In this document: positions 25,804 through 62,826 of the stretch, piece by piece
Numbering within the stretch: position 1 is the first letter of the stretch
How the letters are laid out: the number at the start of each line of letters is the position of its first letter
Source: Bdellovibrionota bacterium
GTDB lineage: Bacteria; Bdellovibrionota_G; JALEGL01; DATDPG01
Assembly (NCBI GenBank): GCA_035292885.1
Contig: DATDPG010000164.1
Location: 1,386 to 65,385, forward strand
Length of the DNA stretch: 64,000 bases
Reading direction: 5' to 3'
The notes under the pieces: generated by a model
The model's database searches: none
What the model was told of the DNA's origin: nothing
What the model saw: the letters and a program-made list of their open reading frames with translations, nothing else
Translations under genes and position numbers: made by a program

Positions 25804-25977
25804 GTCCGTCACGGGTCGCCCCTTGACCCCAAAACTCTGTGGTTCTTATAAGGATACTGGTCATATCGCGTGGGAATTTATCGGATCCTATACATCATAC
25901 GAGACCGTGAAATTGTCGTGGAAGTTTTGAGAATCCAGCATCGAAAGGAAGTCTATGAACGTTTTCGGGGGTGAAAA

Positions 25978-26253
25978 ATGCCGCAACTGGTAACGGTCAC
26001 AAAAGCGAAACAACGGCTGCTCGAACTAGCACGAAGGAACCAAGAACTCGGAGAGTCCTTCATCCTTCTCAAAAATGGAAATCCCGTGAGCGCGCTATTG
26101 CCGTTTGAGGAATATGAGGCGTTGCTGGAAACGCTCGATATCCTCGAAACAGAACCGGATATTTTGGCCAAGTTACGGGCGGCGGAGAGGGAGGTTGCCG
26201 CCGGTAGGTACACGGTCTGGAAAGGCCGACCGCAAAGGCGTAAGAAGCAATAA
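25978..26253 (+). CDS. Phd/YefM-family antitoxin (orphan)
   Basis: ILLKNGNPVSALLPFEEYEALLETLDIL; 91 aa; no toxin gene follows (nadA is next). Confidence 0.7.
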   Translation: MPQLVTVTKAKQRLLELARRNQELGESFILLKNGNPVSALLPFEEYEALLETLDILETEPDILAKLRAAEREVAAGRYTVWKGRPQRRKKQ

Positions 26254-29442: not shown

Positions 29443-29952
29443 CTATTGAATAATAACCGGTGTGCGTTCTTCGGGCCGCCGAAGGAAATGCTCTTTCTTG
29501 ATTTTCTCCTGCAGAAGGAGAAGGCCCTCGGTCAGGGCTTCCGGTCGCGGAGGGCAGCCGGGAACGTAAACGTCCACGGGAATGATCTTATCGACCCCTT
29601 TCATCACCGAATACGCGAGCGAAAAGAGGCCGCCGCATGTGGCGCAGCTTCCCATCGACAAAACGTACTTCGGCTCCGGCATCTGTTCGTACAAAAGCTT
29701 TAGACGCACGCCCATTTTGTACGTCAGTGTGCCGGCCACGATCATGAGGTCCGATTGGCGTGGCGTGGCCCGAGGAACGGATCCAAACCGGTCGATATCG
29801 GCCCGCGGGCCGCCGGTTTGCATCAGTTCAATGGCGCAACAGGCGAGGCCGAAAAGCAGATACCACTGCGAGCTGGCGCGGGACCAGTTGATCACTTCGT
29901 CCACACGCGTGGTAAAAAAATTACCGTCGATTTCTTGATGCAAGCTTTTCAT
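29443..29952 (-). CDS. NuoB-like (complex I 20-kDa / hydrogenase small-subunit-like) Fe-S protein, solo copy
   Basis: [18 protein letters not shown] cysteine motifs. No other nuo genes adjacent. Confidence 0.8.

Positions 29953-39963: not shown

Positions 39964-39976
<13 letters not shown>
37967..39976 (-). CDS. nuoG: NuoG-like 75-kDa Fe-S subunit
   Basis: ATG at 39976 ([14 protein letters not shown]). N-terminal 2Fe-2S Cys set, [36 protein letters not shown] molybdopterin-like domain. Confidence 0.8.
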
Positions 39977-41711
<1,735 letters not shown>

Positions 41712-41715
<4 letters not shown>

Positions 41716-42343
41716 TTGCGCCCCTTTTTACTTGAAGGGAGGTATGTCGACAACTCCTTGGCATCAAAGGGAAAACCGTGCCCCGGATGAATTTTTCCGG
41801 ATGGACCGATCCGACGAATCAACTTCCGTAGACTCTCCTCCCAAAGTACAGCGTCGTGCGGCGAACGTTCGCAAAGATCGCCGACAAACCATTGGGATTC
41901 AATATGAAAGGAAATATCTCCAATGGAATGTCCTGGAGTTTCAAGAACTTCAATTACAATATCTCCGAACGACATTACGTCTTTATCTTTCAAGAGCGAT
42001 TCCACGAGCGGCGCCTTAACACCACAAAGACCCGATTGCTCAGCTAAAGAAGGTAACTGTTGAAGCGCCGGAAGTTCGGCAACATGGGCGCCGATCTTGC
42101 AGCCGAGCCGAACAGCCGCTTCCTGGGCTCGAGCGGCATGGCGAAGATGGCCGTGCGTTAAGAGGATTGCCCGAACGCCGAGCGAATCTTGCTTTACACG
42201 AGCCAAAATCGATTCGAGGTCGCTGGCGGGATCGATCAAAATCGCCTCTTTCCTACCGGAAGCGGATACCAAATAGGTTCGAGCCGCATCCTTCGAACCA
42301 AACGATTCAACGATGATCATTCGGCTAACCCTGCCCGCCATTG
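41712..42343 (-). CDS. MBL-fold metallo-hydrolase family protein with variant HxHxRH motif (first gene of operon)
   Basis: [31 protein letters not shown]. Start taken at [12 protein letters not shown] (the longer ORF extension overlaps the divergent gene). 4-nt overlap with nuoBD. Confidence 0.55.
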
Positions 42344-42385
42344 GCGCAGCTTTCAAGTTGATCCGAGAAGAGATATGAGAACCCC

Positions 42386-42958
42386 ATGGCGACTTCATTT
42401 GCTCCCGAGCCAATTCGAAAGCAGGTTGTGGAGGCTTTTTCCGATGCGGAGGCACCGGCTTACGCCCAATTCGGCACGACCGATGCCGAGGGGAATTCCC
42501 AGATCCGGACCGTCCACTTTCATTATCTTTCCGAACTTGACGTTCTTGCATTCAATGCCCACGTCCGTTCACCGAAATGGGCCCACCTCAAAGCAAATCC
42601 GAAAGCGTCAGGCTGCTATTTCGATACGAAAAGGTTGATCCAATTTCGGTTCGAAGCCGAAGCCTGCTGTTTCGCGGACGGCGGCGGGCACGATCCGCTT
42701 CTCGATTCGATGTGGGCCAAAATCCGGCCCGACGTCCGCGCTGCCTATTGGGAGGATCAAAGCTCGTCCTCGTTTGACGTCGATCGACGGTGTTCCACGC
42801 TGGGAGTCATCGTGCTCCAACCGACGCTTTGGGACATCTGCACGATCGCCATGGAAGATTACCGAAAGGGAAGGCGCGTTCTTTACCGAAATCGCAAAGG
42901 CGTCTGGAGCGAGGAAAGAGTCTCGCTTCTCCACGGCGAAGCGCCCCCAAGCCGATAG
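42386..42958 (+). CDS. pyridoxamine 5'-phosphate oxidase-like FMN-binding split-barrel protein
   Basis: PNPOx-like pattern; 190 aa. Confidence 0.6.
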   Translation: MATSFAPEPIRKQVVEAFSDAEAPAYAQFGTTDAEGNSQIRTVHFHYLSELDVLAFNAHVRSPKWAHLKANPKASGCYFDTKRLIQFRFEAEACCFADGGGHDPLLDSMWAKIRPDVRAAYWEDQSSSSFDVDRRCSTLGVIVLQPTLWDICTIAMEDYRKGRRVLYRNRKGVWSEERVSLLHGEAPPSR

Positions 42959-43044
42959 CGGCCGCACCCGGGGAACCCTGGCCCCTCCGGGGGTGGAATT
43001 TTAGGGGCGTTTTCGGGTAATGTTTATGAACAACGAATACGACT

Positions 43045-43458
43045 ATGAAGTCCTCCCGCAGAAAGCACCCCCGAGTCAACGCAGAACTTACCGCTCAAGC
43101 CAAGCCTAATCGTCGGAATATGTTTGAAGGAAGGGTATTAAACTTAAGCGAAGGAGGCGCATTTTTAGCCACAGCTGAAAAACTGGCCGTGGGAAATGGG
43201 GTCATCCTAAACTTCACGTTGAACATAACCGGCCGCCAAAGGTCCTGCATGGTTGAAGGAAGAATTGTGTGGGCAAACACCGATCCATCCCGGGGCACGG
43301 TAGGAACAGGCATTCGTTTTGACCGTCTCTCCCCGGCAATGGTTCGATTCATACGCGACTATGTGAAGGCAGAACTCAAAGGGGAGGTAAACGCTGAAGG
43401 CACGACCACGGACTCCCAAAGCACTAAACCTCCTGTGCGAGGGCAATTGCGGGGTTGA
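43045..43458 (+). CDS. PilZ-domain protein (c-di-GMP binding)
   Basis: RxxxR (HPRVNAE) and D/NxSxGG (NLSEGGAFL) motifs. Confidence 0.7.
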   Translation: MKSSRRKHPRVNAELTAQAKPNRRNMFEGRVLNLSEGGAFLATAEKLAVGNGVILNFTLNITGRQRSCMVEGRIVWANTDPSRGTVGTGIRFDRLSPAMVRFIRDYVKAELKGEVNAEGTTTDSQSTKPPVRGQLRG

Positions 43459-43477
43459 TATCTGATGACGGAGACGA

Positions 43478-43615
43478 ACGGCTATTTCTTCAGCTTGTCG
43501 TACGAATAAGCGCCGCGCCTGGATTTGCGGCCGGGGCGCCCGTCGGCAACACGCTTCTCCAAGAATCGGCTGGGGCGAAACCGGTCCCCTCCCTTTGTGA
43601 AGAAAGTCTTTCGGC
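43478..43615. repeat. diverged direct-repeat copy of the hbd 3' end (partner at 45609-45748)
   Basis: acgaacggctatttcttcagcttgtcgtacgaataagcgccgcg... versus gcgaacggctatttctttagcttgtcgtaagaataaacgccgcg... The minus-strand ORF here ends ...GAYSYDKLKK, like the Hbd C-terminus. Confidence 0.65.
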
Positions 43616-45516
43616 GGTTCGTGCGTTGGACGGCTTGGACCGCTTTGTTGTTCGCCGGGCTCGCGGCCATTCTTGTTTCTGCGTTTTATGCCTATCGAGG
43701 AGTCGAAGAACACCGATTCGAGGGGCGAATCTGGAAGCCCTGCGGAGCGACTCTTAAGGAAGCGCTCCGGTGCTTGAAAGAGGCCGAGGCCGGTTTCCAC
43801 CAAGAAGACACCCTTGTCATCGCGCAAAAAATCCTGGCGGAGTTTGGCGACGAGCTTCCGGCTTCATCGAGAGCCGCCCTGTGGTACAAGATCGGATCCG
43901 TCCACAACAATCAGTCCCATTTTAAGCCGGCCGTCCGAGCCTTTCAGAAGTCGATCGATCTTTCGAAAAGCTCCGGAGCTTCCCTTCGGAAAGAGGCGAC
44001 GTACCGCCTCTGCGCCGCCCTGGCCTCGATGGACCGAGTCCGAGAAGCGGTGGCCTGTTATGAAGATGCCTACGAACAATACAAGTTGAAACGATTCCTC
44101 AAGGATGCGGAAGACCTTAAAGCTGGCCTCCGTCACCCTTCCGACGCGCCGGAGATAAACGTGACGCTCCGGTTCGCGAGATCCGTGGGAAGGGGAAAGT
44201 CTCTGATCGTTCGCGGAAGTTGGAACCAGAGGGGCGAGCACGACGCAGTGACCGGGTGGGCCCCCCTCCCGATGACAAAGGCCGACGACATGGATGACGA
44301 AACGTGGACGCGTGAAATCCGTCTGCGGACGGATTCGGATCTCCCTTACGTTGCGGTCGTCAGCGAGCAGGATTCTCTCCGGGCGTTTTCCTCGCGCCCG
44401 GTCGGGATCGCCACGTTTCACGCCTCCGCCGCCGCAAACCGTCGAATCGATGTCAGGCCTTATGTTTCCGGGGACCGCCGCAACGCGGATCGGCCGGCCG
44501 CAAAGAGCGACGGCCGCCGGCGGATCGTGGTTCTTTGGCCGGATTCCGGTACGTGGCTCCATTTTATGACGCTCGTTCATTCCGATCAGGCGCCGAACAC
44601 CAAAGCCTTAATGGAGTCCGGCGCATTCGGAATCCTCGACTCCGATCCGCCCATCACGAGCGTGGCTACGGAAAAGCTCACGCATTTTTCCACCACGGAG
44701 TGGAGTCTCCGGAAATGGGCGCGCCTCGGCCTACTTCAGCTCAAAGGGATTGAAATGCTCGAGTCTTTTGTCCCCGATGTTTTGCTTGAAACGCTCCTCC
44801 CCACGGGCCAGATTGCGATTTGGGATCACCTCAAGCGGCACGGGCGGTCTTCGTTAAACCTCATCTTCTCGGACCCCTATGCGTACGCCCACGACGAGGC
44901 GAGAGCGGCGGATTTGATGGCGCACGGCCTCGGTCCGATCGAACTCTATGAGAAGCGCGCGGAGGCCGCGTTTCCTGATTTCTTTGTCCGATATTTTCAC
45001 TTCGACGGAGATGCGAAGAAGCTTCGGAGGAAATTCGTTGAAACCCAATGGAAAGCGATGCACGCGCGCCGGCTGTTGGCGGAGGAAGCTATAAAAACGC
45101 GAGCGTTCGATCTGGTGATCGTACGGTACGCGAGTTTCGATCTCATCCATCATTACGGGTCGGTGCTCACGTCTTCCCAAGACACCTTCTTGGAAGACCT
45201 TCACGGGTTTTACCGTTATGCGGACGACAGCATCGGCACCCTCCGAAAACTCATGGATGCCGACGACATCTTCATCCTCTTGAGCGACCACGGGAGTCGC
45301 GACATGGTCCGCCACCACCGCGATTCTGTTTTCGCCGCCGCGGGGGACGGAATCCCCCGCAACCGCTATCTCGGGCGATCGGATATCCGTGTGTTTCCCG
45401 GATGGGTCGTCGCTCTCCTCGGCGCGCCCGCGGCGGAACATGCCGTTTTCCCGCATGACCCGGCCCTCCCGACCCCGGTGCCGTCAAAAACGAATTCTCC
45501 TCCGGGCATCCGCTAA
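43525..45516 (+). CDS. membrane-anchored protein with TPR-like region and alkaline-phosphatase-superfamily (type I phosphodiesterase-like) C-terminal domain, hypothetical
   Basis: N-terminal TM helix. IFILLSDHGSRD and VVLWPDSGTW motifs suggest an AP-fold. 5' end lies inside the hbd-tail repeat copy, so the start is uncertain. Confidence 0.45.
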   Translation: MRPGRPSATRFSKNRLGRNRSPPFVKKVFRRFVRWTAWTALLFAGLAAILVSAFYAYRGVEEHRFEGRIWKPCGATLKEALRCLKEAEAGFHQEDTLVIAQKILAEFGDELPASSRAALWYKIGSVHNNQSHFKPAVRAFQKSIDLSKSSGASLRKEATYRLCAALASMDRVREAVACYEDAYEQYKLKRFLKDAEDLKAGLRHPSDAPEINVTLRFARSVGRGKSLIVRGSWNQRGEHDAVTGWAPLPMTKADDMDDETWTREIRLRTDSDLPYVAVVSEQDSLRAFSSRPVGIATFHASAAANRRIDVRPYVSGDRRNADRPAAKSDGRRRIVVLWPDSGTWLHFMTLVHSDQAPNTKALMESGAFGILDSDPPITSVATEKLTHFSTTEWSLRKWARLGLLQLKGIEMLESFVPDVLLETLLPTGQIAIWDHLKRHGRSSLNLIFSDPYAYAHDEARAADLMAHGLGPIELYEKRAEAAFPDFFVRYFHFDGDAKKLRRKFVETQWKAMHARRLLAEEAIKTRAFDLVIVRYASFDLIHHYGSVLTSSQDTFLEDLHGFYRYADDSIGTLRKLMDADDIFILLSDHGSRDMVRHHRDSVFAAAGDGIPRNRYLGRSDIRVFPGWVVALLGAPAAEHAVFPHDPALPTPVPSKTNSPPGIR

Positions 45517-45608
45517 CGGCAGTTTCCAAAATACCCGACCGTGTTTACGTTCGATCAGGTGTCCCGGCAACTCCCCCGCTTACGGAACCACGCGATAAAT
45601 CAGAACAG

Positions 45609-45748
45609 CGAACGGCTATTTCTTTAGCTTGTCGTAAGAATAAACGCCGCGTCCCGTTTTCCGGCCGAGGCGGCCTTCGGAGACGTACTTTTCAAGTACC
45701 GGGCTCGGGCGGAAACGGTCCCCGAGAGTCTTGTGAAGGTATTTAAGG
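45609..45748. repeat. hbd 3'-end segment, the authentic copy of the 43478-43615 repeat
   Basis: See the partner repeat. About 90% identity over the first 45 nt, about 75% over 140 nt. Confidence 0.65.
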
Positions 45749-46488
45749 GTCGTCAATCGTACGTCGAGGCCGACGAGGTCGACCATTTCAAACGGTCCCA
45801 TCGGATGATTGAGACCGAGTTTGATCGCCTTATCGATATCCTCGGGCGAGGCGATCTCTTCCTCCAGCATCCGGAAGGCCTCATTTCCGATCAGGGCGTT
45901 CATTCGTGACGTGACGAATCCGGGAGATTCTTTCACGACCACGGTCTCCTTTCCCATCGCCCGAGACACTCGCCTTGCCGTTTCAATCGTCTCCTCACTC
46001 GTCGCCTCGCACGTCACGATTTCAATGAGTTTCATCTTGTGAACCGGATTGAAGAAGTGCATTCCGATGAAACGATCCGGCCGCCCGGAGGCGGCGGCCA
46101 TCTCGCCGACCGGTAATGCGGAAGTATTGGTGGCAAGAATCGCCGATTTCGGGGCGAGGGAATTCAGGCGCTCGAAGAGGTCGCGCTTCATCGTGAGATC
46201 CTCCGGAATCGCCTCGATCGCCAGATCCGCACTTCGGGCGGAAGCCTCGAAGTCGGTGACAAAAACCAAATTGCCCACAGCGCTTTTCATTCCTTCCGCC
46301 GTTACTTTTCCGACTTCGACCCCCTTTTTCAGGTTCTCTTCAATATTCGCTTTGGCCTGGGCCAGAATTTCTTCCGAAACGTCCTGAACGGTGGTGGCAA
46401 AACCACCCAACGCCGAAACATGAGCGATCCCCCGGCCCATCGTTCCGGCGCCGACTACGAGAACATTCTTGACCGGATTCGCCGTCAT
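45616..46488 (-). CDS. hbd: 3-hydroxybutyryl-CoA / 3-hydroxyacyl-CoA dehydrogenase
   Basis: NAD-binding VVGAGTMGRGIA. 3HCDH N and C domains. Confidence 0.9.
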   Translation of the reverse strand: MTANPVKNVLVVGAGTMGRGIAHVSALGGFATTVQDVSEEILAQAKANIEENLKKGVEVGKVTAEGMKSAVGNLVFVTDFEASARSADLAIEAIPEDLTMKRDLFERLNSLAPKSAILATNTSALPVGEMAAASGRPDRFIGMHFFNPVHKMKLIEIVTCEATSEETIETARRVSRAMGKETVVVKESPGFVTSRMNALIGNEAFRMLEEEIASPEDIDKAIKLGLNHPMGPFEMVDLVGLDVRLTTLKYLHKTLGDRFRPSPVLEKYVSEGRLGRKTGRGVYSYDKLKK

Positions 46489-47534
46489 GTCCGGCTGCTG
46501 GCGGAGGGAGTCAAGACGACTTTGCCGAACTGTTTCCGGTCTTCCAGCAACTTATGAGCGACTTTTACATCCTTGAGCGTCAACACGCGATCCACGACCG
46601 GATGAAGTTTTTTCTCCGGAAAGTACTTGAGAACTTCCAAAAGCTCCGCTTTCGACCCGACGTACGAACCCAAGACGGAAAGGTGGCGGGAAAATATGTA
46701 GCGGAGATCGAGCTTCACGATGGGGCCGGTGGTGGCACCGCAGGTGACCAAGCGGCCTGCTCGCGCCAGCGACAGAATGCTTTTCTCCCACGTGGCGGGA
46801 CCCACATGCTCGATCACGACCTCCACGCCTTTCTTGTCCGTCAATTTCATCACTTCGGCGTGAAAATCTTTCTTCACGTAATTGACGGTGTCGTCGGCGC
46901 CCAAATCCTGGGCCTTTGCGAGTTTCTCTTCCGTGCTCGCCGTGGCGATGACGCGCGCTCCGAAGAGTTTCGCGATTTGGATCGCCGCGATTCCGACTCC
47001 GGACCCCGCCGCCAAGACCAACACATCCTCCCCCGGCTGAACTTTCGCCCGCGCCACAAGCATGTGCCAGGCGGTCAGAAACACGAGGGGGATACTCGCG
47101 CCTTCGACGAAATTGATCCCTTGAGGCATCGGGATCACGTTCGTGGACGGAACTTTCACGTATTCGGCGCAGCCGCCGTCCCGTTTGAACCCCAGGAGCG
47201 TGTAGTCGGGGCACATGTTGTCGTTCCCCGCGAGACAATATTTGCATTCTCCGCAGCTGACTCCGGGGGAGAGAAGAACTTTGTCCCCCTTTTTGATTCC
47301 ACTGACCATGTCCCCTGTTTCATGCACTACTCCTGAAATGTCGGTGCCGGGAATCACGGGCAGCGGAATTTTAATTCCAGCAATGCCCTGCCGGGTCCAA
47401 AGGTCGAGATAATTGAGCGCACACGCCTTTACGGCAACCAAGACCTCGTTCGGTTGAATCTTGGGGTCGGGAACAGACTCGTACGTCAGGCGTTCCAACC
47501 CGCCATGTTTATGAATTCGAACCGCCTTCACGTC
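46485..47534 (-). CDS. zinc-type alcohol dehydrogenase / quinone oxidoreductase (MDR family)
   Basis: GTG start at 47534 (VKAVRIHKHGG). The ORF extension upstream overlaps the next gene and is rejected. GSGVGIAAIQIAK Rossmann motif. Confidence 0.8.
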   Translation of the reverse strand, partial: DVKAVRIHKHGGLERLTYESVPDPKIQPNEVLVAVKACALNYLDLWTRQGIAGIKIPLPVIPGTDISGVVHETGDMVSGIKKGDKVLLSPGVSCGECKYCLAGNDNMCPDYTLLGFKRDGGCAEYVKVPSTNVIPMPQGINFVEGASIPLVFLTAWHMLVARAKVQPGEDVLVLAAGSGVGIAAIQIAKLFGARVIATASTEEKLAKAQDLGADDTVNYVKKDFHAEVMKLTDKKGVEVVIEHVGPATWEKSILSLARAGRLVTCGATTGPIVKLDLRYIFSRHLSVLGSYVGSKAELLEVLKYFPEKKLHPVVDRVLTLKDVKVAHKLLEDRKQFGKVVLTPSASSRT

Positions 47535-47563
47535 GCGGAATCTACCGGATGTTCCGCGTTTTA

Positions 47564-48517
47564 CTAAGGAAGAACTTTTCGGGCGTTTTCGACCAGCATT
47601 TTTTGTTTGGCCTCTTCCGAAAGCGGAAGGGACTCGAACACCGCAAGATTCTCCGCCATATCGGGGACGCCGGGACCCGGCCAGTCCGTGCCGTAGAGAA
47701 CCTTGTCCGCGATCTCCTCCAGGCGTGGGAAATAGGAGAGCAGCGACTTCGGAGGTATGCCGGAAATGTCCATGAAGAAATTGGGGTGTCGCCGGACCAG
47801 AAAGAAACAGGTGTTCATCCAAAGCGGCCGGCCGCCGTGGGCCAGCACCACGCGGAGGTTCGGAAAATCAACGCCGATGTCGTCGCAGGTCATGGGATCT
47901 CCATACTTGTTCCTCGCGCCCGGGAAAATCGACGTCCCGGTATGGATCATGACCGGAACGCGATATTCTTCCGCCTTCCGGTAGATCACTCCAAGAGCGT
48001 GAAGACCGCCGCGGTATTCGTTCGGGAACACCAGCTGATGCGGCGGATGGATTTTGATCATCCGGATTCCCAGATCACCGCAAAGTTTGTCCATCAGATC
48101 TTGCGGGGCCGGGGAAAGGCGCGGGTGCACCGAGCCGACAGCCAAGAGCCGCGCCGGAGAGACCGAACAGAACTTTGAAACCCACGAATTCACGTCGTCG
48201 GTGAATCCCATGATGTCGGGACTCACGTAATTGACGACGCACACACGATCGATACCGACGCGGTCGATGTGATCGATAAACTCCAGTGGATCTTCTCCGT
48301 AGCGGGCGATTAAATCGGCATCGGGTCTCTTTTGCCGCATTTTCTGCAGCGCTTCCGGTTTGAACATGTACCAGGGCTGAACATGCACATGAAAATCGGT
48401 AATCCCCTCCCGTCGCCGCACCTGCGCTCCCGAAGCTTTCCGTTTCGGATTTGTCGTCTCTTTTTTCGCTTTCGTCACGCGTGGGAACAGAATAAAACAA
48501 TCGCCGATGAAAGCCAT
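47564..48517 (-). CDS. amidohydrolase-2 (PF04909-type) TIM-barrel metal-dependent hydrolase
   Basis: DFHVHV HxH motif, later His/Asp ligands (MIHTGTS, VLAHGG, GTDWP). ATG at 48517, or alternative GTG near 48477. Confidence 0.75.
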   Translation of the reverse strand: MAFIGDCFILFPRVTKAKKETTNPKRKASGAQVRRREGITDFHVHVQPWYMFKPEALQKMRQKRPDADLIARYGEDPLEFIDHIDRVGIDRVCVVNYVSPDIMGFTDDVNSWVSKFCSVSPARLLAVGSVHPRLSPAPQDLMDKLCGDLGIRMIKIHPPHQLVFPNEYRGGLHALGVIYRKAEEYRVPVMIHTGTSIFPGARNKYGDPMTCDDIGVDFPNLRVVLAHGGRPLWMNTCFFLVRRHPNFFMDISGIPPKSLLSYFPRLEEIADKVLYGTDWPGPGVPDMAENLAVFESLPLSEEAKQKMLVENARKVLP

Positions 48518-49538
48518 TCAATATTCGCGGCACGGCGGGCCGGAAGTCCTTGCCTACGTCGATCTTCCGGACCCAGTGCCCGGCCCGGGGCAGGCCGTTG
48601 TGCGTCTCAAGGCCGCCGGAATCAATCACATCGACATTCACATCCGCCGAGGCATTCCCGGAATGAAAACTCCCCTCCCCCACATCCCGGGTTGTGACGG
48701 CTCCGGGATCGTCGACGCGGTCGGCGCGGGCGTCACGAACGTTGAAGCGGGTCAGCGAGTGACCATCAATCCAGGGACCTCGTGTGGCGTATGCGAGCAG
48801 TGCGGCGCCGGAGAAAAGAGCCTATGTCACCGCTACCAAATTCTGGGAGAGCACGGCAACGGCACATATGCCGAAAAAATCGCGATCCCGGCCGTCAATG
48901 CTTTGCCGATCCCGGATTCCGTATCCTTTGAAACGGCGGCCGCGGCGCCATTGGCCTATCTAACGGCTTGGAGCATGGTCGTGTCGAAGGCTCGTGTACG
49001 AGCGGGAGATGCCGTGCTCGTCATGAGCGCCGGCTCTGGCGTCAGTACGGCGGCCATCCAAATCTGCAAGATGCTGGGCGCGAAGGTCTTTGCCACCGCG
49101 AGTACGCCGGAGAAGGCCGACCGGGCCAAAAAGGACCCGGGCGCCGACGTCGTCATCGATTACACGACGACGCCGATCGACAAAGAGATTCGAACCCTGA
49201 CGGAAAAACGGGGCGTCGACGTCATCATCGACCATGTCGGGGGTGAACAGTGGCTTCCGATGCTTCGTTCTCTTCGGAAGGGTGGAACGCTCGTCACGTG
49301 CGGAGCGACGGCCGGTTTCGAGCCGAAAGAAGATCTCCGCCAAATCTTTTTTCGGCAGCTCCGGATTTTGGGCTCGACGATGGGAAACGACGCGGAACTG
49401 CATTCAGTCCTGAAACTTGTGTTCGAAGGCCGACTGAAACCAATCATTGATAAGAGTTTCCCCCTTAAACAGGCACCCGAAGCTCATCGCCGAATGGAAG
49501 AGCGGAAGTCTTTCGGAAAAATCGTGTTGATCCCGTAG
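48507..49538 (+). CDS. quinone oxidoreductase / Zn-ADH (MDR family)
   Basis: ATG at 48507 (MKAIQYSRHGGPEVL). GSGVSTAAIQICK cofactor motif. Confidence 0.85.
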   Translation: MKAIQYSRHGGPEVLAYVDLPDPVPGPGQAVVRLKAAGINHIDIHIRRGIPGMKTPLPHIPGCDGSGIVDAVGAGVTNVEAGQRVTINPGTSCGVCEQCGAGEKSLCHRYQILGEHGNGTYAEKIAIPAVNALPIPDSVSFETAAAAPLAYLTAWSMVVSKARVRAGDAVLVMSAGSGVSTAAIQICKMLGAKVFATASTPEKADRAKKDPGADVVIDYTTTPIDKEIRTLTEKRGVDVIIDHVGGEQWLPMLRSLRKGGTLVTCGATAGFEPKEDLRQIFFRQLRILGSTMGNDAELHSVLKLVFEGRLKPIIDKSFPLKQAPEAHRRMEERKSFGKIVLIP

Positions 49539-49560
49539 ATCCGGTTTCCGCTACCGATAC
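49481..49560. repeat. 80-bp direct repeat (copy 1), 3' end of the MDR gene plus 22 bp beyond its stop
   Basis: agctcatcgccgaatggaagagcggaagtctttcggaaaaatcgtgttgatcccgtagatccggtttccgctaccgatac. 78/80 identical to 53262-53341. Confidence 0.75.
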
Positions 49561-49596
49561 GGATCTGGCGAAAGAGATCTCCTGCGAAGTTCGGCC

Positions 49597-50280
49597 TTAC
49601 CGGGATTTGGATTTTCCGGATTGTTTTACGCTGTTCGCGGGCTTGGTTAGTGTCCTGCTGCAGCAAATGGCGGTGGTCACCGTCGTCAATTTTCCGACGT
49701 GCGCTTGCACCGAAGCGATCGCATGGTTGATCGCGGTCGTCGTGGCGGCATCAACGCTCCCAATCCGAGAATTCGCGTTTTGCAACGCCGCTATCAGATT
49801 GTTGGCCGCCGTCACGGCGGTTCCCGACGTATTCGCAAAGGTTTGTGTGAGATAATTTTCAGATTTGCATTGAACGATCGTGGGATCGTTGAACGTGTCA
49901 TTTATCTCGTCGCTTACCGCCTCGGAGAGGTCCCCATCCGAATCGGTGTCTTGTTCGCTGTAGTCCGCGATCACGTTGTTTGCCGCATCCAGGGCGTCCT
50001 CCGCATACTCGCTTTCGCTGAACTCGCTGTTATGCGTATTGTCCGATTCCAAAAGCGCCAATTCATTTAGGATATCGGTCGACGTAGCCGTGGATTCGCT
50101 TATAACATCCGCCGCCTGAAGCGTCAGATCGTCGATGGCGTCCTGAGTGAGGTTCGGACATGGCTCCTGTGCCTGGGCGCCAGAGAGCGTCAACAGAAAT
50201 CCGACGCTGCACGCGATGGACGCTGCGGATGGTAGGCGTTTTCCTCTAGTCGCTTTCCGATTTTTCGCAAATGGGTTCAT
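49597..50280 (-). CDS. secreted acidic protein, hypothetical
   Basis: Signal peptide (LTLSGAQAQE). Asp/Glu/Ser-rich middle. 227 aa. Downstream of the 907-aa gene in the same operon. Confidence 0.4.
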   Translation of the reverse strand: MNPFAKNRKATRGKRLPSAASIACSVGFLLTLSGAQAQEPCPNLTQDAIDDLTLQAADVISESTATSTDILNELALLESDNTHNSEFSESEYAEDALDAANNVIADYSEQDTDSDGDLSEAVSDEINDTFNDPTIVQCKSENYLTQTFANTSGTAVTAANNLIAALQNANSRIGSVDAATTTAINHAIASVQAHVGKLTTVTTAICCSRTLTKPANSVKQSGKSKSR

Positions 50281-50296
50281 CTTTCAATCCTCCGAT

Positions 50297-53020
50297 CTAG
50301 ATGTTGCAACGACAATATTGGAAAGTATCTTTGCAGCCCGCCTTGCAGGACGCTTTGGCGTCTTTGCATTGCTGTTTGCATGCTTGTTTGGTGTCCTTGC
50401 ACGTTTGCTTGCAATCCCGCTTGGTTTGTCGGCAGGTCTGTTTGCACTCCCGTTTGTCCTGTCTACACTCCCTCCGGCACTTTCTGCGCTGCGACCCCGT
50501 GTACTGATCGCAGTTGGCGTAGCATGTGTCTTTGGTATTTACGCATGAAGTGGAGCAGCTCGCCTTTTGTGTTTCACAGGTTTGAACGCACAGACCTTTC
50601 ACAGTCTTGCAGTCGCTCTTGCAGGACTGGAACGAGTCTCTGCACCCCGTTCGGCAGGTGTGGCGATTCGGCTTACAACTTTGTTTCTGTTGGCGGTACG
50701 CGCGTTTCCGATCTTTTTTGGATACGTACGCTTGAATGCCGGAAAGATCCGATGGGGCCGTTGCCACAGGGCCGGTCCGAGGTCCGATACTTCGTTCCCA
50801 CATACGAATGAATTTCTCCGATGAATTTTCGATGTTCGTCGTGTCGATTCCGAAATTGTCGAGCTGATGTACCAGATCCGGGAGGAGCCCCTCGTGGCCG
50901 AGACCCAGGATATCGAACTCGGTCCCGACGCCGTTAAAGGACCGTTTGCATTCCGCTCGAGCCTGACAGCGGCTTTCTCTCCGGATACCGCTTCCGGAGC
51001 AGGGATCGGTTTTTCCATACGTCTCGCAGGCGTCGGTGTTTCCATACCGCGGGCGGGTCTGTGTGATGAAACCGTTAAGGTCCGTGGCGAAAGCGATGTC
51101 GACGTTTAATCCGTTGCGCCCCAAGGCATACGCTTGCGCAAATGATTTAGCGGATCCGTGACAGTCGTTCGGAACCAAGGCTGGCTGATAGTGAAGAACT
51201 TCTTCATTAGCCGTTCGAAGGCCGAAAATTCCTCCCGTCTCCTTCACAATGTCTACGATGTTCGCGGGTGTCGTTTTCTCTTCCAACTGCTTTTTTGGTG
51301 TCATGATCTCGCGGAAGTGACCGTGGGACATGAAGAGGGGGTAATAGTTTCTCGCGACGGAGATGTTATAGATTTCGTTCACAGCGTTCTCGGATACATG
51401 GGAGAGATCGATGAGCATCCCGAGATTCATCATCTCGTTGACCAGGGCGACACCGTCCGCCGTAAGGCCCTTTACGTTCTTGCAACTTGAGTCAAGATCA
51501 AAACCGAAGGGATATCGATCCGAACAGTCTGTTTCGATGTGACACGTGTCCATGAATTCGCCGATGAAGAAAACGGTGTGATGAGGGGCCGCGCCTGAAA
51601 ACTGATTGTCGAATTGGTGCACCGGCTGAACCGATCGAACGCCCAGGTCGTAAAAACGACGGAGCTCAGCCATATAGTCGGGCGCGCCTTCGAACAGGCG
51701 GGAAGCTTCAATGGCCAGGATGATCGCGAGTTTTCCCTCATGAATGATCCGCCGCGCATCTTGCGGTGTGAGCGCAATCTCGGCCCATGGGTGATTTTGA
51801 ACAAAGTTGTGCGCCATGTTGATCTCTTGTTCGACGGCGAACATCTCATCGCAGAAGGGGTTGAATAGCGTCGGCGGGTTCAGATTACACAAAAAAGCGT
51901 TATCGACGGCTGACATGACCATTAACGAAAGTCCCCGGTCGTGCGCCTGCTTTAACCACCCCTCCCAAACTTGCTGGTGAGCCGAGACATCCCAACGGGG
52001 CCAGCCGGTATACGTCGGATAGCCGAACGTTCGCAAAAGGTGAAAGCCTGTGTCTTTCCCCAAAATTTCGGAAAGTACGAAGTCCAGCACGTGGATTAAA
52101 ATCGTTGTCGCGTGAGCGCACGGATTGAGCGCTGTCAGACGCTCCAAGAACATTCGACCATGGCTAAAACCGTCGCATGGCGCGAGAGCGATATCCTCGG
52201 GTCCAGCGGCGTTTCCCCAAAGCCAGTTCCCGCCGAAGGCGAGTTCGGAAAACGTGTGAATGTGCGTATCGGCAAACCCAGGGACCGGACTCAGCGCGGC
52301 CGCTTGGTTCGACAGGGGGACGCGAAAGATCAGGTACTCTTTGTGATTAAACCCGGGATAGAATGGAGCCGACGCGTGGCTGGTGTCGTTTCCACTGTTA
52401 AACCAAATCCAATGTGCGTTGGATGAAATGGCTGGGACTACTGGAAACGGGCTCTCCACGGGAAAGGTTCCGTTGTTTACGCCCCCGATCGTCGGGATTC
52501 GCCATTTGAGATTCGTATCCGCGTCGCCGGCGATCGAGCGAATGTCCGCCGAACCGGGCCCCTGTGAGGGAAACGGCTGGTCAAGATCAATGAGAGAGGG
52601 GACCACCTGGACCAATGGGTCCCCGCTCAAAATCATCTTACGGTTGACCTGAATTTGAAACAGGAGGCCCTGCGTGCCGACATCGTCGCCCCAAGCGGTA
52701 ATGTAAAGGAAAGGATCGTTGGTAACGATGGACGCCGCGGCGGCGCTCCCGGCCGACGCATTTCCGCCGCTGACCGGCGTGATCGATCCATTGGCCGATT
52801 GGGTGAACAAGGCGAACGAGTCGAAGCCCATGACTTGAGTCTGAACATTCAGCCCCCCTCCGCCGCCAGGCCCGTTAGGGTTATGCTTCTGGGTGTTGCC
52901 AGCGACCGTCGCGGCACGGACGCCGAGACCGTTCGTGAAGGCGAATGCGACGATTAACCATCCAAGAAGGGGTAGAAAAACGCCCACGAGCGGTCTCTTC
53001 GGTTGCCGAGGAGGGCGCAT
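50297..53020 (-). CDS. large secreted protein: N-terminal unknown domain, central putative metal-dependent hydrolase-like region, C-terminal Cys/Lys 11-residue ladder (~13 repeats of C-x3-C-x6)
   Basis: Signal peptide. ...CKPNRHTCRTGCRDSFQSCKSDCKTVKGLCVQTC...CKQTCRQTKRDCKQTCKDTKQACKQQCKDAKASCKAGCKDT tail with strict 4/7 Cys spacing. Confidence 0.5.
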   Translation of the reverse strand: MRPPRQPKRPLVGVFLPLLGWLIVAFAFTNGLGVRAATVAGNTQKHNPNGPGGGGGLNVQTQVMGFDSFALFTQSANGSITPVSGGNASAGSAAAASIVTNDPFLYITAWGDDVGTQGLLFQIQVNRKMILSGDPLVQVVPSLIDLDQPFPSQGPGSADIRSIAGDADTNLKWRIPTIGGVNNGTFPVESPFPVVPAISSNAHWIWFNSGNDTSHASAPFYPGFNHKEYLIFRVPLSNQAAALSPVPGFADTHIHTFSELAFGGNWLWGNAAGPEDIALAPCDGFSHGRMFLERLTALNPCAHATTILIHVLDFVLSEILGKDTGFHLLRTFGYPTYTGWPRWDVSAHQQVWEGWLKQAHDRGLSLMVMSAVDNAFLCNLNPPTLFNPFCDEMFAVEQEINMAHNFVQNHPWAEIALTPQDARRIIHEGKLAIILAIEASRLFEGAPDYMAELRRFYDLGVRSVQPVHQFDNQFSGAAPHHTVFFIGEFMDTCHIETDCSDRYPFGFDLDSSCKNVKGLTADGVALVNEMMNLGMLIDLSHVSENAVNEIYNISVARNYYPLFMSHGHFREIMTPKKQLEEKTTPANIVDIVKETGGIFGLRTANEEVLHYQPALVPNDCHGSAKSFAQAYALGRNGLNVDIAFATDLNGFITQTRPRYGNTDACETYGKTDPCSGSGIRRESRCQARAECKRSFNGVGTEFDILGLGHEGLLPDLVHQLDNFGIDTTNIENSSEKFIRMWERSIGPRTGPVATAPSDLSGIQAYVSKKDRKRAYRQQKQSCKPNRHTCRTGCRDSFQSCKSDCKTVKGLCVQTCETQKASCSTSCVNTKDTCYANCDQYTGSQRRKCRRECRQDKRECKQTCRQTKRDCKQTCKDTKQACKQQCKDAKASCKAGCKDTFQYCRCNI

Positions 53021-53261
53021 CGGCCTCCCATGTCAAACATGACGCTCCTAGTCAAGGTAAACCTCCTAGGAAATTTCAAGAATCCGGCGGTTGTATTGGG
53101 GCGAGAATGGGTGTGGCCGAGGAGATCGATGGACTCCGCGATGTCCGAGCGATTTCGGTCAAGGTGCGAAACCACACGCTTTGGATTCGCATCGATATCC
53201 GCTTCGAGGGGCGTCTAAAAGTCTTCCTCGATCAGACGTTCGCGTTGAAAGACGCCGCGAA

Positions 53262-53341
53262 AGCTCATCGCCGAATTGAAGAGCGGAAGTCTTTCGGAAA
53301 AATCGTGTTGATCCCGTAGATCCGGTTCCCGCTACCGATAC
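53262..53341. repeat. 80-bp direct repeat (copy 2), duplicated MDR 3' end
   Basis: 78/80 identity to 49481-49560. Upstream ~65 nt still encode ...FEGRLKVFLDQTFALKDAAKAHRRIEERKSFGKIVLIP, a diverged copy of the MDR C-terminus. Abuts the relE stop. Confidence 0.75.
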
Positions 53342-53589
53342 ACTTCACTCCGATGGGCGATCTTCACGACGTCCACAACTTTGCGGGCGTCATCGACAGC
53401 ATAGACGACTCGATAAGGTCCTTGTCTCAGCCGGTATTTTTCCTCGCCTGAAAGCTTCTGCGAGCCGGGCGGCCGGGGATTCAAAGATAAGCCTTCGATT
53501 CGCGCGACGATCTGTTGAACAATTTTCTTTGGAAAACCCTCGAGCTCCTTGAGCGCCGATGGCTTGATGGAGAGACTATAATTTTCCAC
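53332..53589 (-). CDS. relE: RelE/ParE-family toxin
   Basis: 85 aa; ...YRLRQGPYRVVYAVDDARKVVDVVKIAHR typical of RelE/StbE. Confidence 0.75.
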   Translation of the reverse strand: MENYSLSIKPSALKELEGFPKKIVQQIVARIEGLSLNPRPPGSQKLSGEEKYRLRQGPYRVVYAVDDARKVVDVVKIAHRSEVYR

Positions 53590-53806
53590 TCGAGCGCAGT
53601 CTCTTCAACGCATCTTCAAACGGGAGGCTCTTCTCTTTTTTGCGCTCGTCGAACGAGGCCAGATCCTCAAGGTCCTCGGAAAGATTGAGCCGAATCACTT
53701 CGTTCACAATCTCCGACACCGATTTTTCAATCTCGGCGGCCTTGAGTTTCAGGGCTTTATGAAGGTCGCGATCAAAGTAAATGGTCGTTCTCGAAGTGTT
53801 TGCCAT
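53576..53806 (-). CDS. ribbon-helix-helix (CopG/Arc-type) antitoxin
   Basis: TTIYFDRDLHKALKLKAAEIEKSVSEIVNEVI RHH pattern. Overlaps relE by 14 nt. Confidence 0.7.
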   Translation of the reverse strand: MANTSRTTIYFDRDLHKALKLKAAEIEKSVSEIVNEVIRLNLSEDLEDLASFDERKKEKSLPFEDALKRLRSSGKL

Positions 53807-59652: not shown

Positions 59653-60423
59653 TCATAGCTCCGCCGAAGGACAGAGGGAAGCGAGTTTACATTCAGGGCA
59701 CTTTGGCCGAATCGCCTTGCACAATCTCCGCCCATGCCATATGAGACGATGCGAGAACATCGTCCACTCTTCCCGCGGCACAAACCGCATCAAATCCTGC
59801 TCCACCTTTTCCGGATCGTTGTGTTTCGTTAGACCCAGCCTTCGCGCGATTCGCCCCACGTGCGTATCGACGACGACACCGTCATTCTTTCCAAACGCCG
59901 TTCCCAAAACGACGTTAGCGGTCTTCCTTCCTACTCCGGGCAACCTTACCAACTCATCCATGGTGTCGGGCACCCGCCCCCCATAGTCATCCGCTATTTT
60001 TTCGCTGGTTCCCTGAATCGACTTTGCCTTGCTTCGAAAAAACCCCGTCGAACGAATCAGATCCTCCAGTTCCTCCCGCGGAACGGAAGCAAAGTCGCGG
60101 GCCGTTTTAAATCGCCGGAACAGCTCCGGCGTGACCTTATTCACCCGTTCATCCGTGCATTGTGCGGATAAAATCGTAGAGACCAGAAGCTGCAGCGGAT
60201 TCTCATGCGTCAGCGCGCACTCCACATCCGGATACATTTCCTTTATCAATCTCAAAATTTCCTCAAGATTCGGACCACGACGAACACGCCCAACCCGAGA
60301 ACTGCGCGCGGGCGAGGCCGGAGTGAACTTTCGTCGACCTGTCCTTTTCTGGAGACGAAAGGCACTCCGGCCTCGCTGTGCAAGGCTTTCGACTTTCTGT
60401 TTAGTGCGTGCGGGTTTGGGCAA
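59653..60423 (-). CDS. nth: endonuclease III (HhH-GPD plus 4Fe-4S)
   Basis: LVRLPGVGRKTANVV HhH. C-terminal CPECKLASLCP cluster. The N-terminal Arg-rich ~50 aa and the exact start are uncertain (non-ATG start; a strong hairpin lies at 60312-60377). Confidence 0.8.
   Translation of the reverse strand: MPKPARTKQKVESLAQRGRSAFRLQKRTGRRKFTPASPARSSRVGRVRRGPNLEEILRLIKEMYPDVECALTHENPLQLLVSTILSAQCTDERVNKVTPELFRRFKTARDFASVPREELEDLIRSTGFFRSKAKSIQGTSEKIADDYGGRVPDTMDELVRLPGVGRKTANVVLGTAFGKNDGVVVDTHVGRIARRLGLTKHNDPEKVEQDLMRFVPREEWTMFSHRLIWHGRRLCKAIRPKCPECKLASLCPSAEL
60312..60377 (-). terminator. strong GC-rich hairpin at the polX/nth junction (attenuator/terminator or intra-coding structure)
   Basis: gcgaggccggagtgaactttcgtc / gacgaaaggcactccggcctcgc, ~22-bp stem, 17-nt loop. 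Confidence 0.4.
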
Positions 60424-62134
60424 GTGCCTTCTCCATGGCTGCCACCGGCAACGTATTAAACACGTCGCGCTTCGTCAGCCCCCCTTTGCGAGCCATATTG
60501 ATCCCGAATCGAATGTCCGAAAGCCCCTTCGTATCGTGCGCATCGGGATCGATCGCCAAACGAACCCTTTTTTCCTTCGCGTATCCGACGACGCGCCAAT
60601 CCAGATCGAGCCGATACGGATTGGCGTTCAATTCGACGATTTTCCCCAAATTAGCGGCGCGATCGATGATGGCGTGCAAATCAATCTTGAACGCCTCCCG
60701 ATTCAATAAAAGGCGCCCTGTCGGATGCCCCAAGATGGTGCAATAGGGATTCTCCAAGGCCCTAACGCAACGTTTCGTCATCTCTTCTTCCGGCATATTG
60801 AAGCTGGCGTGCACCGATCCAATGACGAAATCGAAGTTCTTTAACACACGGTCCGGATAATCCAGAGAACCGTCCGGAAGGATATCCGACTCCACTCCTC
60901 GGAAGATCCGAAGCTTGGGATACTTTTTCTGAAGGTGATCGAGCTCTGTGAACTGCCGATCGATATCGGCCTCTTTCAGCCCGCCGGCGTAAAAGGCGGT
61001 TTGGCTGTGCTCGGAGATTCCGATGTACTCAATATCCATCTCGGCCGCCGCGGCCACCATCTCGGCTAATGTGTTGCGCCCGTCGCTGTATGTGGAATGG
61101 ACGTGAAAAAAACCGCGGAGGTCCCCCAATTCGATCAATTCCGGAATCTTCCCTCTTTCCGCCGCTTCAATCTCGCCGTTATCCTCTCGAAGCTCGGGAG
61201 GAATGTACGCAAGCCCCAGCGCTTTGAAGATCGCCGCTTCGTCATTGCACGGAACCAGTTTCTCCCCTTTGAAGAGGCCGTACTCGTTCATCTTAAAACC
61301 CGTCTCCTTCGCCCGTGTCCGCATCGCCGTGTTGTGTTCCTTGCTTCCCGTGAAATGGTGGAGAGCGTACGGGAACTCTTTATCCGTAACGACGCGAAGG
61401 TCGCACTGAAGTCCCTTCCCCAGAATCACGCTGGACTTTGTTTCTCCATGCGCCAGCACCTGAACAACGCCCGGCATTGCAACGAACTTGTCCATCACGG
61501 CCTGCGGCTTCGTCGACGCCGCCACGATGTCGACATCTTTGACCATTTCCTTTCCACGTCGGAGACTCCCGCCCAAAGATACCCGCTCGATCTCTTTCCA
61601 TTTTTTCATCTTGTGCAGAATTCCTTCGGCGGTATCAATGACGTCGCCGTAGAGATAGCGACCGGATGCGGTATGGAGAAATTCAATCCCTTTCAAGACT
61701 TTCTCCTGCGTCTTCTGGCCGAATCCGGCGAGCTTTAACAGCCGATTCTCCCTGCATGCCTTTTCCAGTTGTTCGAGCGACTCGATGCCAAGCTCTTCGT
61801 AGAGAACTTTCACTTTCTTGGGTCCGAGTCCCTGGACCTTCAAGAGATCAAAAAGTGTTTCGGGGAACTCCTTTCGGAGCTTTTCCAGATACACAAGCTT
61901 TCCGGTCTGGGCCAACTCCGTGATCTTTTCCTTTAACGCCGCGCCGATCCCCTTCATTTCCCAAAGTCGACCGGAGCTCATCAGCGATCCGAGGTCCCCG
62001 TCCACGGATTCAAGCGTTCGGGCGCCTGCGGAATAAGCTCTGACTTTGAAAGGGTTTTCCCCTTTGAGTTCCAGGAGAACGGCGATTTCCTCGAGGGCCT
62101 CCGCGACCTGATGCCGATCCGCCTGAAGGTTCAC
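60401..62134 (-). CDS. polX: DNA polymerase X family protein with C-terminal PHP domain
   Basis: GTG start overlapping the queC stop (GTGA). PolX palm/HhH regions and PHP motif FFHVHSTYSDG. Confidence 0.85.
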   Translation of the reverse strand: MNLQADRHQVAEALEEIAVLLELKGENPFKVRAYSAGARTLESVDGDLGSLMSSGRLWEMKGIGAALKEKITELAQTGKLVYLEKLRKEFPETLFDLLKVQGLGPKKVKVLYEELGIESLEQLEKACRENRLLKLAGFGQKTQEKVLKGIEFLHTASGRYLYGDVIDTAEGILHKMKKWKEIERVSLGGSLRRGKEMVKDVDIVAASTKPQAVMDKFVAMPGVVQVLAHGETKSSVILGKGLQCDLRVVTDKEFPYALHHFTGSKEHNTAMRTRAKETGFKMNEYGLFKGEKLVPCNDEAAIFKALGLAYIPPELREDNGEIEAAERGKIPELIELGDLRGFFHVHSTYSDGRNTLAEMVAAAAEMDIEYIGISEHSQTAFYAGGLKEADIDRQFTELDHLQKKYPKLRIFRGVESDILPDGSLDYPDRVLKNFDFVIGSVHASFNMPEEEMTKRCVRALENPYCTILGHPTGRLLLNREAFKIDLHAIIDRAANLGKIVELNANPYRLDLDWRVVGYAKEKRVRLAIDPDAHDTKGLSDIRFGINMARKGGLTKRDVFNTLPVAAMEKALAQTRTH

Positions 62135-62826
62135 GGCGCCGTCGCCACTCTTAGCCGAACTGCCGCTCCGTAATCGGTCGGGTCGATGATTCCGGCCTGC
62201 TGAAACGCCTTTTGACGTTCCGCGCACTTGTTGCACTTACCACAATGGCGTCCTCCGCGAGGCTGAAGGCAGGAGAGCGTTAAATGAATCGGCCAGCGGC
62301 GGCCGCGAAGAATCACATCCGATTTCGAATACTGGCGATACGGCGCGTGGATCTCGATCGGGCGCCCCAAGGCCATGGAGACCGTACGCGCCATCTGTTC
62401 CAGGAATTTTTCGCTCGCGTCCGGGAAGGGATTCCCCCGCAACAAACCCACGAATATTTGATCGATTCCGGTGAGGGAGCAGAACGTAGCCGCGTGGGAC
62501 AAAAGCAAAAGGTTTCGGCCGGGAAGATAGACCTCCGGATCCGGGTCTTGGAATTTGGGAACCCGGGCGCCGTTGACGCTCCAATGATCGTCGCCGTACA
62601 TCTGAGCCGCTCCGAGAGTGAGTTCGGCAATCGGAGTCAGGGACGGCTCCGCCAACGAAGCCACAAAGCGTCTCAAGGCCCGAAGCTCCGCTTCCTCCCA
62701 CAAAAGCCCGCTTCGAATAAAGATCGGAGTCACCTGCGGCCAGATCTCGGCACATTCCGCCAGCAGTACGGCGCTGTCCAGACCTCCGCTCACCAGGACG
62801 GCGGCATTTCGTTTGTGCGCGGACAT
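62131..62826 (-). CDS. queC: 7-cyano-7-deazaguanine synthase
   Basis: VLVSGGLDS PP-loop. C-terminal Zn Cys cluster (CLQPRGGRHCGKCNKC). Confidence 0.9.
   Translation of the reverse strand: MSAHKRNAAVLVSGGLDSAVLLAECAEIWPQVTPIFIRSGLLWEEAELRALRRFVASLAEPSLTPIAELTLGAAQMYGDDHWSVNGARVPKFQDPDPEVYLPGRNLLLLSHAATFCSLTGIDQIFVGLLRGNPFPDASEKFLEQMARTVSMALGRPIEIHAPYRQYSKSDVILRGRRWPIHLTLSCLQPRGGRHCGKCNKCAERQKAFQQAGIIDPTDYGAAVRLRVATAP

Follow-up and report, generated by a model that had tools for sequence, protein, structure and literature searches.

In a 64,000-nucleotide stretch of a Bdellovibrionota metagenome-assembled genome (MAG; contig DATDPG010000164.1, positions 1,386 to 65,385), here called the window, hbd, a gene for a 3-hydroxyacyl/3-hydroxybutyryl-CoA dehydrogenase, is accompanied by a second, diverged copy of its own 3' end on the far side of about 2 kb of DNA. 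The same arrangement recurs 4 kb away at adh343, a gene for a zinc-type alcohol dehydrogenase. We tentatively favour the reading that both structures are orphaned gene tails, left behind when DNA was inserted, guided by homology (Campbell-type), at the hbd and adh343 3' ends, and give this reading slightly less than an even chance. The evidence for the two repeats is presented below, followed by the explanations that compete for them.

Two repeated gene tails

The region around hbd contains the following features:

43045-43458, plus strand: PilZ-domain gene (Pfam PF07238, E 3e-15), converging on the orphan hbd tail
43475-43589, minus strand: copy A, the orphan hbd 3' end, with 35 in-frame codons, the stop codon (43482-43484) and a 7-nt flank
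43597-45516, plus strand: enclosed gene, probably 639 amino acids (aa) from a GTG; maximal open reading frame (ORF) of 663 aa from TTG 43525
45517-45608, no strand: spacer between the convergent 639-aa gene and hbd, without homology to the flank of the other copy
45609-45723, minus strand: copy B, the last 35 codons and stop codon of the functional hbd plus 7 nt beyond (repeat finder and self-BLAST)
45616-46488, minus strand: hbd, 290 aa, 3-hydroxyacyl/3-hydroxybutyryl-CoA dehydrogenase (Pfam; homologues named 3-hydroxybutyryl-CoA dehydrogenase by the Joint Genome Institute)

A repeat finder run on the window returned the direct repeat 43475-43589/45609-45723 (115 nt, 77% identity), and BLAST of the window against itself recovered the same pair over 116 columns with 79.3% identity and an E-value of 9.9e-20, far from chance. 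A preliminary description, made from the letters of this DNA, had placed a diverged copy of the hbd 3' end beside the PilZ gene at 43478-43615, which is borne out; the extent fits roughly if an 8-mer, TTGTGAAG, common to 43595-43602 and 45731-45738 with an offset of 2 nt, is added to the repeat. While this 8-mer hints at a few more bases, homology past the repeat limits is not significant on either side and stops abruptly. The roughly 2 kb between the copies hold one gene (ORF 43525-45516), as also described earlier, and the layout is what an insertion of DNA immediately downstream of hbd would give.

The gene hbd is the last of a minus-strand run amidohydrolase-adh348-hbd, and its product carries both domains of the enzyme (3HCDH_N PF02737, 1.5e-60, and 3HCDH PF00725, 3e-34, in Pfam). 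Copy A, 23 nt from the stop codon of the PilZ gene, corresponds to hbd codon for codon over the last 35 codons with zero indels and a shared stop codon, so that the minus-strand ORF ends in ...RGAYSYDKLKK* where Hbd ends in ...RGVYSYDKLKK*, a resemblance that had already been pointed out. The 62-aa minus-strand ORF that contains copy A (43482-43670) matches only positions 61-97 of PF00725, the C-terminal end of the profile (E 1.4e-3).

The differences between the hbd copies carry the signature of selection. Over the 35 codons we counted 14.5 synonymous differences in 26.2 sites and 11.5 non-synonymous differences in 78.8 sites, i.e. proportions pS of 0.55 and pN of 0.146 and an omega of about 0.16 (binomial P 0.0015 for the synonymous excess). 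Hence, for most of their divergence both tails were parts of working genes. With these values, and with 21% of the bases differing, the proposal that the insertion had duplicated its target in the manner of a target-site duplication does not hold. Three replacements in the orphan affect residues that are invariant in 120 Hbd homologues (GRLGRK to GRPGRK, TGRG to SRRG and GVY to GAY) and mark later decay, the orphan having drifted somewhat after the loss of function. Compared with the resident Hbd and 119 other homologues, the orphan is nearest to the resident tail (score 132, next best 108), and the ending YSYDKLKK* is common to these two alone among the 120 homologues; the source was therefore a related lineage or allele rather than a random homologue. 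Taken together, the comparison points to a once-functional, well-diverged hbd allele, since slightly decayed, as the origin of the orphan, which is best read as a pseudogene that still meets the PilZ gene tail to tail, as it did originally.

Divergence is unevenly distributed along the hbd repeat. The terminal 43 nt (43475-43517) are 93% identical and the inner 72 nt 68%, with 3 mismatches in 42 terminal against 23 in 72 inner positions and a break after 43517 (permutation P 0.036, weaker than at adh343, see below). Exact runs comprise 16 nt across the stop codon (43475-43490) and 8 nt at the inner edge.

Contigs of other assemblies are 100% identical over the junctions (ENA ERZ27254865, covering 41274-46172, and Logan SRR3989295, covering 41538-44760), and the structure is therefore not an assembly artefact. 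Scanning metagenomes with PilZ gave a single identical contig of 1.2 kb, exact look-ups of Hbd, PilZ, Adh343 and ParE gave identical contigs only, and the insert is present, with 100% identity, in every contig of this organism. No relative above 63% identity was found by scanning a genome collection with Hbd, and the next best match in a protein search with Hbd was at 65-66%. As a separate observation, a contig from sample ERZ27254795 matches the window up to 45555, 61 nt downstream of the hbd stop codon, and its last 14 nt (its positions 2151-2164, AGCAGCACTGGCCA) match nothing in the window and are too short to interpret; they may reflect strain variation or an artefact at the end of the contig. 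The two sequences part in the loop of a long hairpin located between the 639-aa gene and hbd; the spacer 45517-45608 can form a long minus-strand hairpin that is not significant.

These data also bear on whether the similarity might be due to chance or to a chimeric assembly, or the copy might be no relic but a small ORF or an RNA element with a function; all of this is extremely unlikely. Chance is contradicted by E-values of 1e-19 for the hbd pair and 9e-33 for the adh pair, and a chimera by the identical contigs in several assemblies. A functional small ORF has in its favour that the 62-aa ORF is open and nothing else, and it is contradicted by the replacements at invariant residues. An RNA element is not indicated either, as the orphan region matched no Rfam family and shuffled sequences folded just as well (z +0.55 and +0.70). 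Promoter and terminator signals in the orphan did not exceed the chance level.

The second repeat lies at the other edge of a four-gene core formed by hbd, adh348, the amidohydrolase gene and adh343:

46485-47531, minus strand: adh348
47564-48421, minus strand: amidohydrolase
48507-49538, plus strand: adh343, zinc-type alcohol dehydrogenase
49422-49560, plus strand: left copy of the repeat, made up of the 3' end of adh343, 12 nt of spacer and the final 10 nt of parE (49551-49560)
49597-50280, minus strand: 227-aa secreted-looking protein, bracketed by the adh repeat
50297-53020, minus strand: 907-aa protein with a partial M19 peptidase domain, bracketed by the adh repeat
53203-53341, plus strand: orphan adh 3' end, contiguous with a complete parE (ORF against PF13602, E 8.7e-10)
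53332-53589, minus strand: ParE toxin (residues 7-84 match profile positions 2-89 of 89)
53576-53806, minus strand: RHH (ribbon-helix-helix) antitoxin, with parE the in-situ neighbour of the adh orphan

The direct repeat 49422-49560/53203-53341 spans 139 nt with 82% identity (self-BLAST, E 9e-33). The four genes of the core stand between the two repeat pairs, both orphans lie symmetrically outside it, and at both loci the bracketed genes run towards the gene with the repeated tail, hbd or adh343. Like the hbd pair, the adh pair is a mosaic. It breaks after 49479, the inner 58 nt containing 23 mismatches (60% identity) and the last 81 nt 2 mismatches (97.5%; permutation P < 0.0002). Synonymous sites are saturated in the inner 58 nt (pS 0.81, pN 0.26), whereas the last 81 nt are without a synonymous change. 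In both pairs the nearly identical part consists of a gene-terminal block and a short flank, and the identity breaks are recombination junctions.

At adh343 the shared flank comprises 22 nt, i.e. the 12-nt spacer and 10 nt of parE with the codons Y-R-stop, of which 21 are identical. The complete ParE reaches the last position of its Pfam profile, and the ending ...VYR is found in most of 43 ParE homologues. As the parE ending is thus native to the toxin family, the orphan beside parE is in situ, and hence the tail that now belongs to adh343 was copied from an adh-parE junction.

A further ParE-like sequence lies elsewhere in the window, directly after an M20 peptidase gene. This 5'-truncated toxin fragment (25804-25974, plus strand) matches profile positions 46-89 of 89 and has an in-frame stop codon; it is followed by an intact Phd/YefM-type antitoxin gene (25978-26253) and nadA, and represents a third gene-tail relic of the window, of about 130-170 nt. 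The window is unusually rich in toxin-antitoxin genes set among housekeeping genes, with two MNT/HepT pairs, two HicA toxins and the ParE/RHH pair (17323-18039, 19561-20432, about 34.9-35.1 kb, about 58.9-59.2 kb and 53332-53806).

Origin of the orphan tails

According to the reading we favour, a 2-kb piece of DNA with the alkaline-phosphatase-family gene would have been inserted so as to separate the orphan from the hbd body, with the 3' end of hbd providing the homology for the recombination. This could have occurred by a single crossover of a circular or circularised piece that carried about 120 nt of an hbd tail, or by an equivalent homology-anchored event, and would leave a complete, working hbd on one side and a useless tail that decays on the other. 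The same event would have taken place at the other edge of the core, at the adh343 3' end. An extra recombination step, or heteroduplex correction, may then have left the terminal 43-81 nt nearly identical and the inner part deeply diverged. The repeats, their reading frame, selective signature and mosaic identity and the parE fragment are observed, as is the lack of any detected recombinase; from these we infer how the crossover took place, that the inserted DNA came from a related genome, and that an extra recombination step occurred. That the repeats run past the stop codon into the neighbouring gene points to copying from this locus and not to an evolved attachment site.

Several points weigh against this explanation. 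Neither an empty site, nor a circular form, nor an insert-free relative was found in genome and protein collections and metagenome contigs. The polarity of the insertion is read from internal evidence only, because the nearest Hbd is 66% identical and all contigs of the organism are identical. A simple crossover of diverged tails alone would not leave near-identical terminal blocks, and an added step is needed, whether the heteroduplex segregated or was repaired, or a homologous segment was imported later within borders set by both inserts. Moreover, the identity of the inner blocks (60-68%) is very low for RecA-type exchange, the origin of a circle carrying cargo and a gene tail has no explanation in the model, and two independent events flanking one four-gene core are a coincidence that lies outside it.

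The earlier description had proposed a site-specific insertion next to the hbd 3' end. Its insertion geometry is supported, site specificity is not. We compared 33 window ORFs with Pfam, used precomputed Pfam matches for 35.6-56.5 kb and searched six-frame translations of nine non-coding stretches. No integrase, transposase, excisionase, phage gene or gene of an integrative and conjugative element (ICE) was found in the inserts, the scanned ORFs or these stretches, the latter containing only small toxin-antitoxin genes, and the spacer 45517-45608 holds no Pfam fragment in any of the six frames. The repeat finder detected no terminal inverted repeats at the insert ends, and no motif common to the hbd and adh repeats was found.

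These negative results bear on the idea that the two structures are remains of site-specific elements of the e14/phage 21 type, which carry surrogate 3' ends and displace the host tails to their far ends; here the integrase and other element genes would later have been deleted, or a recombinase encoded elsewhere would have acted on the cassettes in trans. In geometry and selective signature the structures agree with e14, and exact runs that could serve as a core are available (16 nt at 43475-43490 and 8 nt at the inner edge). Both elements would, however, have had to lose everything mobile, the hbd and adh sites lack a common motif, and the copied flank includes a piece of the neighbouring parE, whereas the homology in e14 stops at the stop codon. 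In addition, the inserts are small (2.0 kb at hbd and 3.6 kb at adh343) and contain cellular-type genes with typical codon usage. We therefore consider an origin of this type, in either of its two forms, unlikely.

Nor is there a signal of foreign composition. GC content, GC at third codon positions (GC3) and codon usage are ordinary in the bracketed genes, and the codon usage of the enclosed 639-aa gene is the most typical in the window. We also rejected a target-site duplication by a transposon or insertion sequence (IS). Such duplications measure 2-15 bp, are identical at formation and go along with terminal inverted repeats and a transposase, whereas the repeats described here measure 116-139 nt, are 79-82% identical with an excess of synonymous differences, and have neither inverted repeats nor a transposase. 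Decay of an hbd paralogue in place was dismissed as well, since a full-length hbd at the position of the orphan would overlap the 639-aa gene.

A different origin of the orphans is offered by homology-facilitated illegitimate recombination (HFIR) or xenologous displacement, with the gene body as anchor and an illegitimate joint inside the resident 3' end. The donor would be a diverged relative that carried the 639-aa gene beside hbd and the 227- and 907-aa genes beside adh, and the resident tails would have been pushed downstream, perhaps in one 9.6-kb replacement spanning 43590-53202. Such an event would produce the geometry known from the orphaned 3' ends of Rhs, contact-dependent inhibition (CDI) and type VI secretion system (T6SS) effector loci (PMC5361080), and it agrees with the tight native junctions between both orphans and their resident neighbours, the abrupt loss of homology at the inner ends and an orthologue-level divergence with low omega. 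The symmetric position of the orphans around one core and the similarly small decay of the terminal blocks (3/42 and 2/81) also fit. On the other hand, displacement should leave the repeat evenly diverged from end to end, while both pairs are mosaic; it does not account for the resident 12-nt spacer and 10 nt of parE (21/22) on an adh343 flank that should derive from the donor; and in other genomes hbd is not the neighbour of the homologues of the 639-aa gene. We judge this origin distinctly unlikely. The single 9.6-kb replacement has an attractive symmetry, but as the sole event it was rejected on the near-identical terminal blocks and the parE fragment.

The mosaic could alternatively result from a local duplication that gave identical copies, by a long staggered break or by tandem duplication and random loss, followed by homologous import from a diverged, insert-free relative that overwrote the core between the two insertion borders, so that the terminal blocks alone stayed alike and the orphans preserve the old allele. 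One import bounded by two heterology borders would explain why both breakpoints lie near gene ends, the parE fragment would be explained too, and a local origin agrees with the typical codon usage seen in the bracketed genes. Three events are required, though, and import across the 32-40% mismatch of the inner blocks is very unfavourable. Tandem duplication with random loss meets a further obstacle, namely that the start of hbd overlaps adh348, so that the 639-aa gene could not have lain between them, and we know of no bacterial mechanism that makes target duplications of 116-139 nt. This scenario thus appears improbable.

Finally, small gene cassettes might be moved in this lineage independently of a recombinase, or in trans. 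A cassette flanked by direct repeats of the tail of a conserved gene would pop out as a circle by recombination between the repeats and, after transfer, enter the tail of the same gene in another genome, remaking repeats of about 115-140 nt each time; such a process would act repeatedly, here twice within 10 kb. We regard this as very unlikely.

The enclosed gene and other window features

The protein encoded between the hbd repeats had been described as membrane-anchored, with a TPR region and an alkaline-phosphatase fold, and the profile, structure and family comparisons agree with this. PF01663 matched above its cut-off (30.0 bits versus 23, E 5e-7) at residues 432-597 of the 663-aa ORF, and a family alignment identified as invariant the putative metal ligands and nucleophile D316, T354, D515, H519, D564-H565-G566 and H573. 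In an AlphaFold2 model (pLDDT 82), a membrane helix at the N-terminus is accompanied by TPR-like helices as well as a beta and an alpha/beta domain. The best PDB matches of this model in Foldseek are enzymes of the alkaline-phosphatase superfamily and NPPs, with 3lxq and the Xac NPP 7n1s at the top (E 3e-5 to 1e-4, probability 1.0). The gene product is thus predicted to be a conserved membrane-anchored TPR and alkaline-phosphatase-superfamily (NPP-like) protein. Whereas a word-based search found only the protein itself, an exhaustive HMMER search returned 206 relatives, the best two being of similar length and 39% and 32% identical; the genomic neighbourhoods of these two are unrelated and they do not stand beside hbd. 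No viral or plasmid relatives were found.

The start of this gene affects how the repeat is described. In the homologues only few residues precede the membrane helix, and gene callers place the start at 43648 (623 aa). The most plausible start is probably GTG 43597, 8 nt past the repeat, from which the protein begins with MKKVFRRFVRW followed by the helix, and the 24-codon extension to TTG 43525, an arginine-rich antisense of the hbd tail, is probably not translated. The statement that the 5' end of the gene is built on the antisense of the repeat is accordingly doubtful, as the repeat is more likely its upstream region. For annotation this means that the 663-aa ORF is probably over-extended, and also that the small ORFs 43482-43670 and 53113-53319 are gene fragments.

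Further features were noted elsewhere in the window. A tRNA-Sec gene (22143-22239, minus strand), adjoined by a type II secretion system pseudopilin gene, is overlapped by a mechanical 190-aa ORF (22116-22688), of which the N-terminal 50 residues alone look real (Phd-like antitoxin). Two diverged nuoB-like segments (29532-29753 and 41256-41474; 70% nucleotide and 50% amino acid identity) indicate two NADH dehydrogenase gene sets, one of them a 583-aa fusion at 39964-41715 that combines a NuoB-type (Oxidored_q6) with a 49-kDa (NuoD-type) domain. At 60401-62236 the minus strand encodes PolX (bacterial family X), a DNA polymerase with a PHP domain. A 32-nt inverted repeat (16228-16259/16371-16402, 91% complementary) surrounds the start of a polyprenyl synthetase gene.

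Comparison with known systems

The locus is a clean, datable footprint of accessory genes wedged between convergent genes in a poorly sampled lineage, where orphan tails preserve an older or foreign allele beside the current one. It looks like ordinary genome remodelling, with a well-preserved scar of a known kind, and not like a new molecular system or type of mobile element. Given relatives, it could serve to test whether insertions border and trap homologous imports.

A close parallel in geometry is the cryptic prophage e14 of Escherichia coli K-12, a 15-kb element with intE, xisE and phage genes, which like phage 21 sits at the icd 3' end and where icdC is the in-situ original (PMC13626634). 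For comparison we measured the last 165 nt of icd and icdC, which are 92.7% identical in frame, with pS of 0.29 and pN of 0.016. As in e14, an intact target gene stands on one side and an in-frame C-terminal pseudogene on the other, the direct repeats exceed 100 nt, the differences are mostly synonymous and the orphan is the in-situ original. Unlike e14, the inserts contain no recombinase, at 2.0 and 3.6 kb, and the divergence is much deeper and mosaic. Moreover, the repeats extend 7-22 nt past the stop codon, at which the icd/icdC repeat ends. With a duplication made by a transposon or IS, the structures share only the direct repeats around inserted DNA.

Orphaned 3' ends in Rhs and T6SS loci are products of homology-anchored insertion (PMC5361080), in which, as in CDI loci, the gene body anchors, a new 3' end arrives with one or more downstream genes and the old 3' end is kept downstream as a fragment. 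The structures in the window resemble them in this arrangement and in having no dedicated recombinase. Those loci, however, encode polymorphic toxins under diversifying selection and contain arrays of orphans, whereas metabolic housekeeping genes are affected here; and the mosaic identity and the parE fragment set the window apart from simple HFIR.

Campbell-type integration, the process we tentatively favour, has been observed upon conjugation in E. coli, where single crossovers of circular DNA with short homology gave flanking duplications of 109-950 bp (PMC3240628). In the window, too, direct duplications flank the inserts, their lengths of 116 and 139 nt fall within this range, and the process needs no site-specific enzyme. 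These laboratory experiments used identical homology, whereas the copies described here have diverged.

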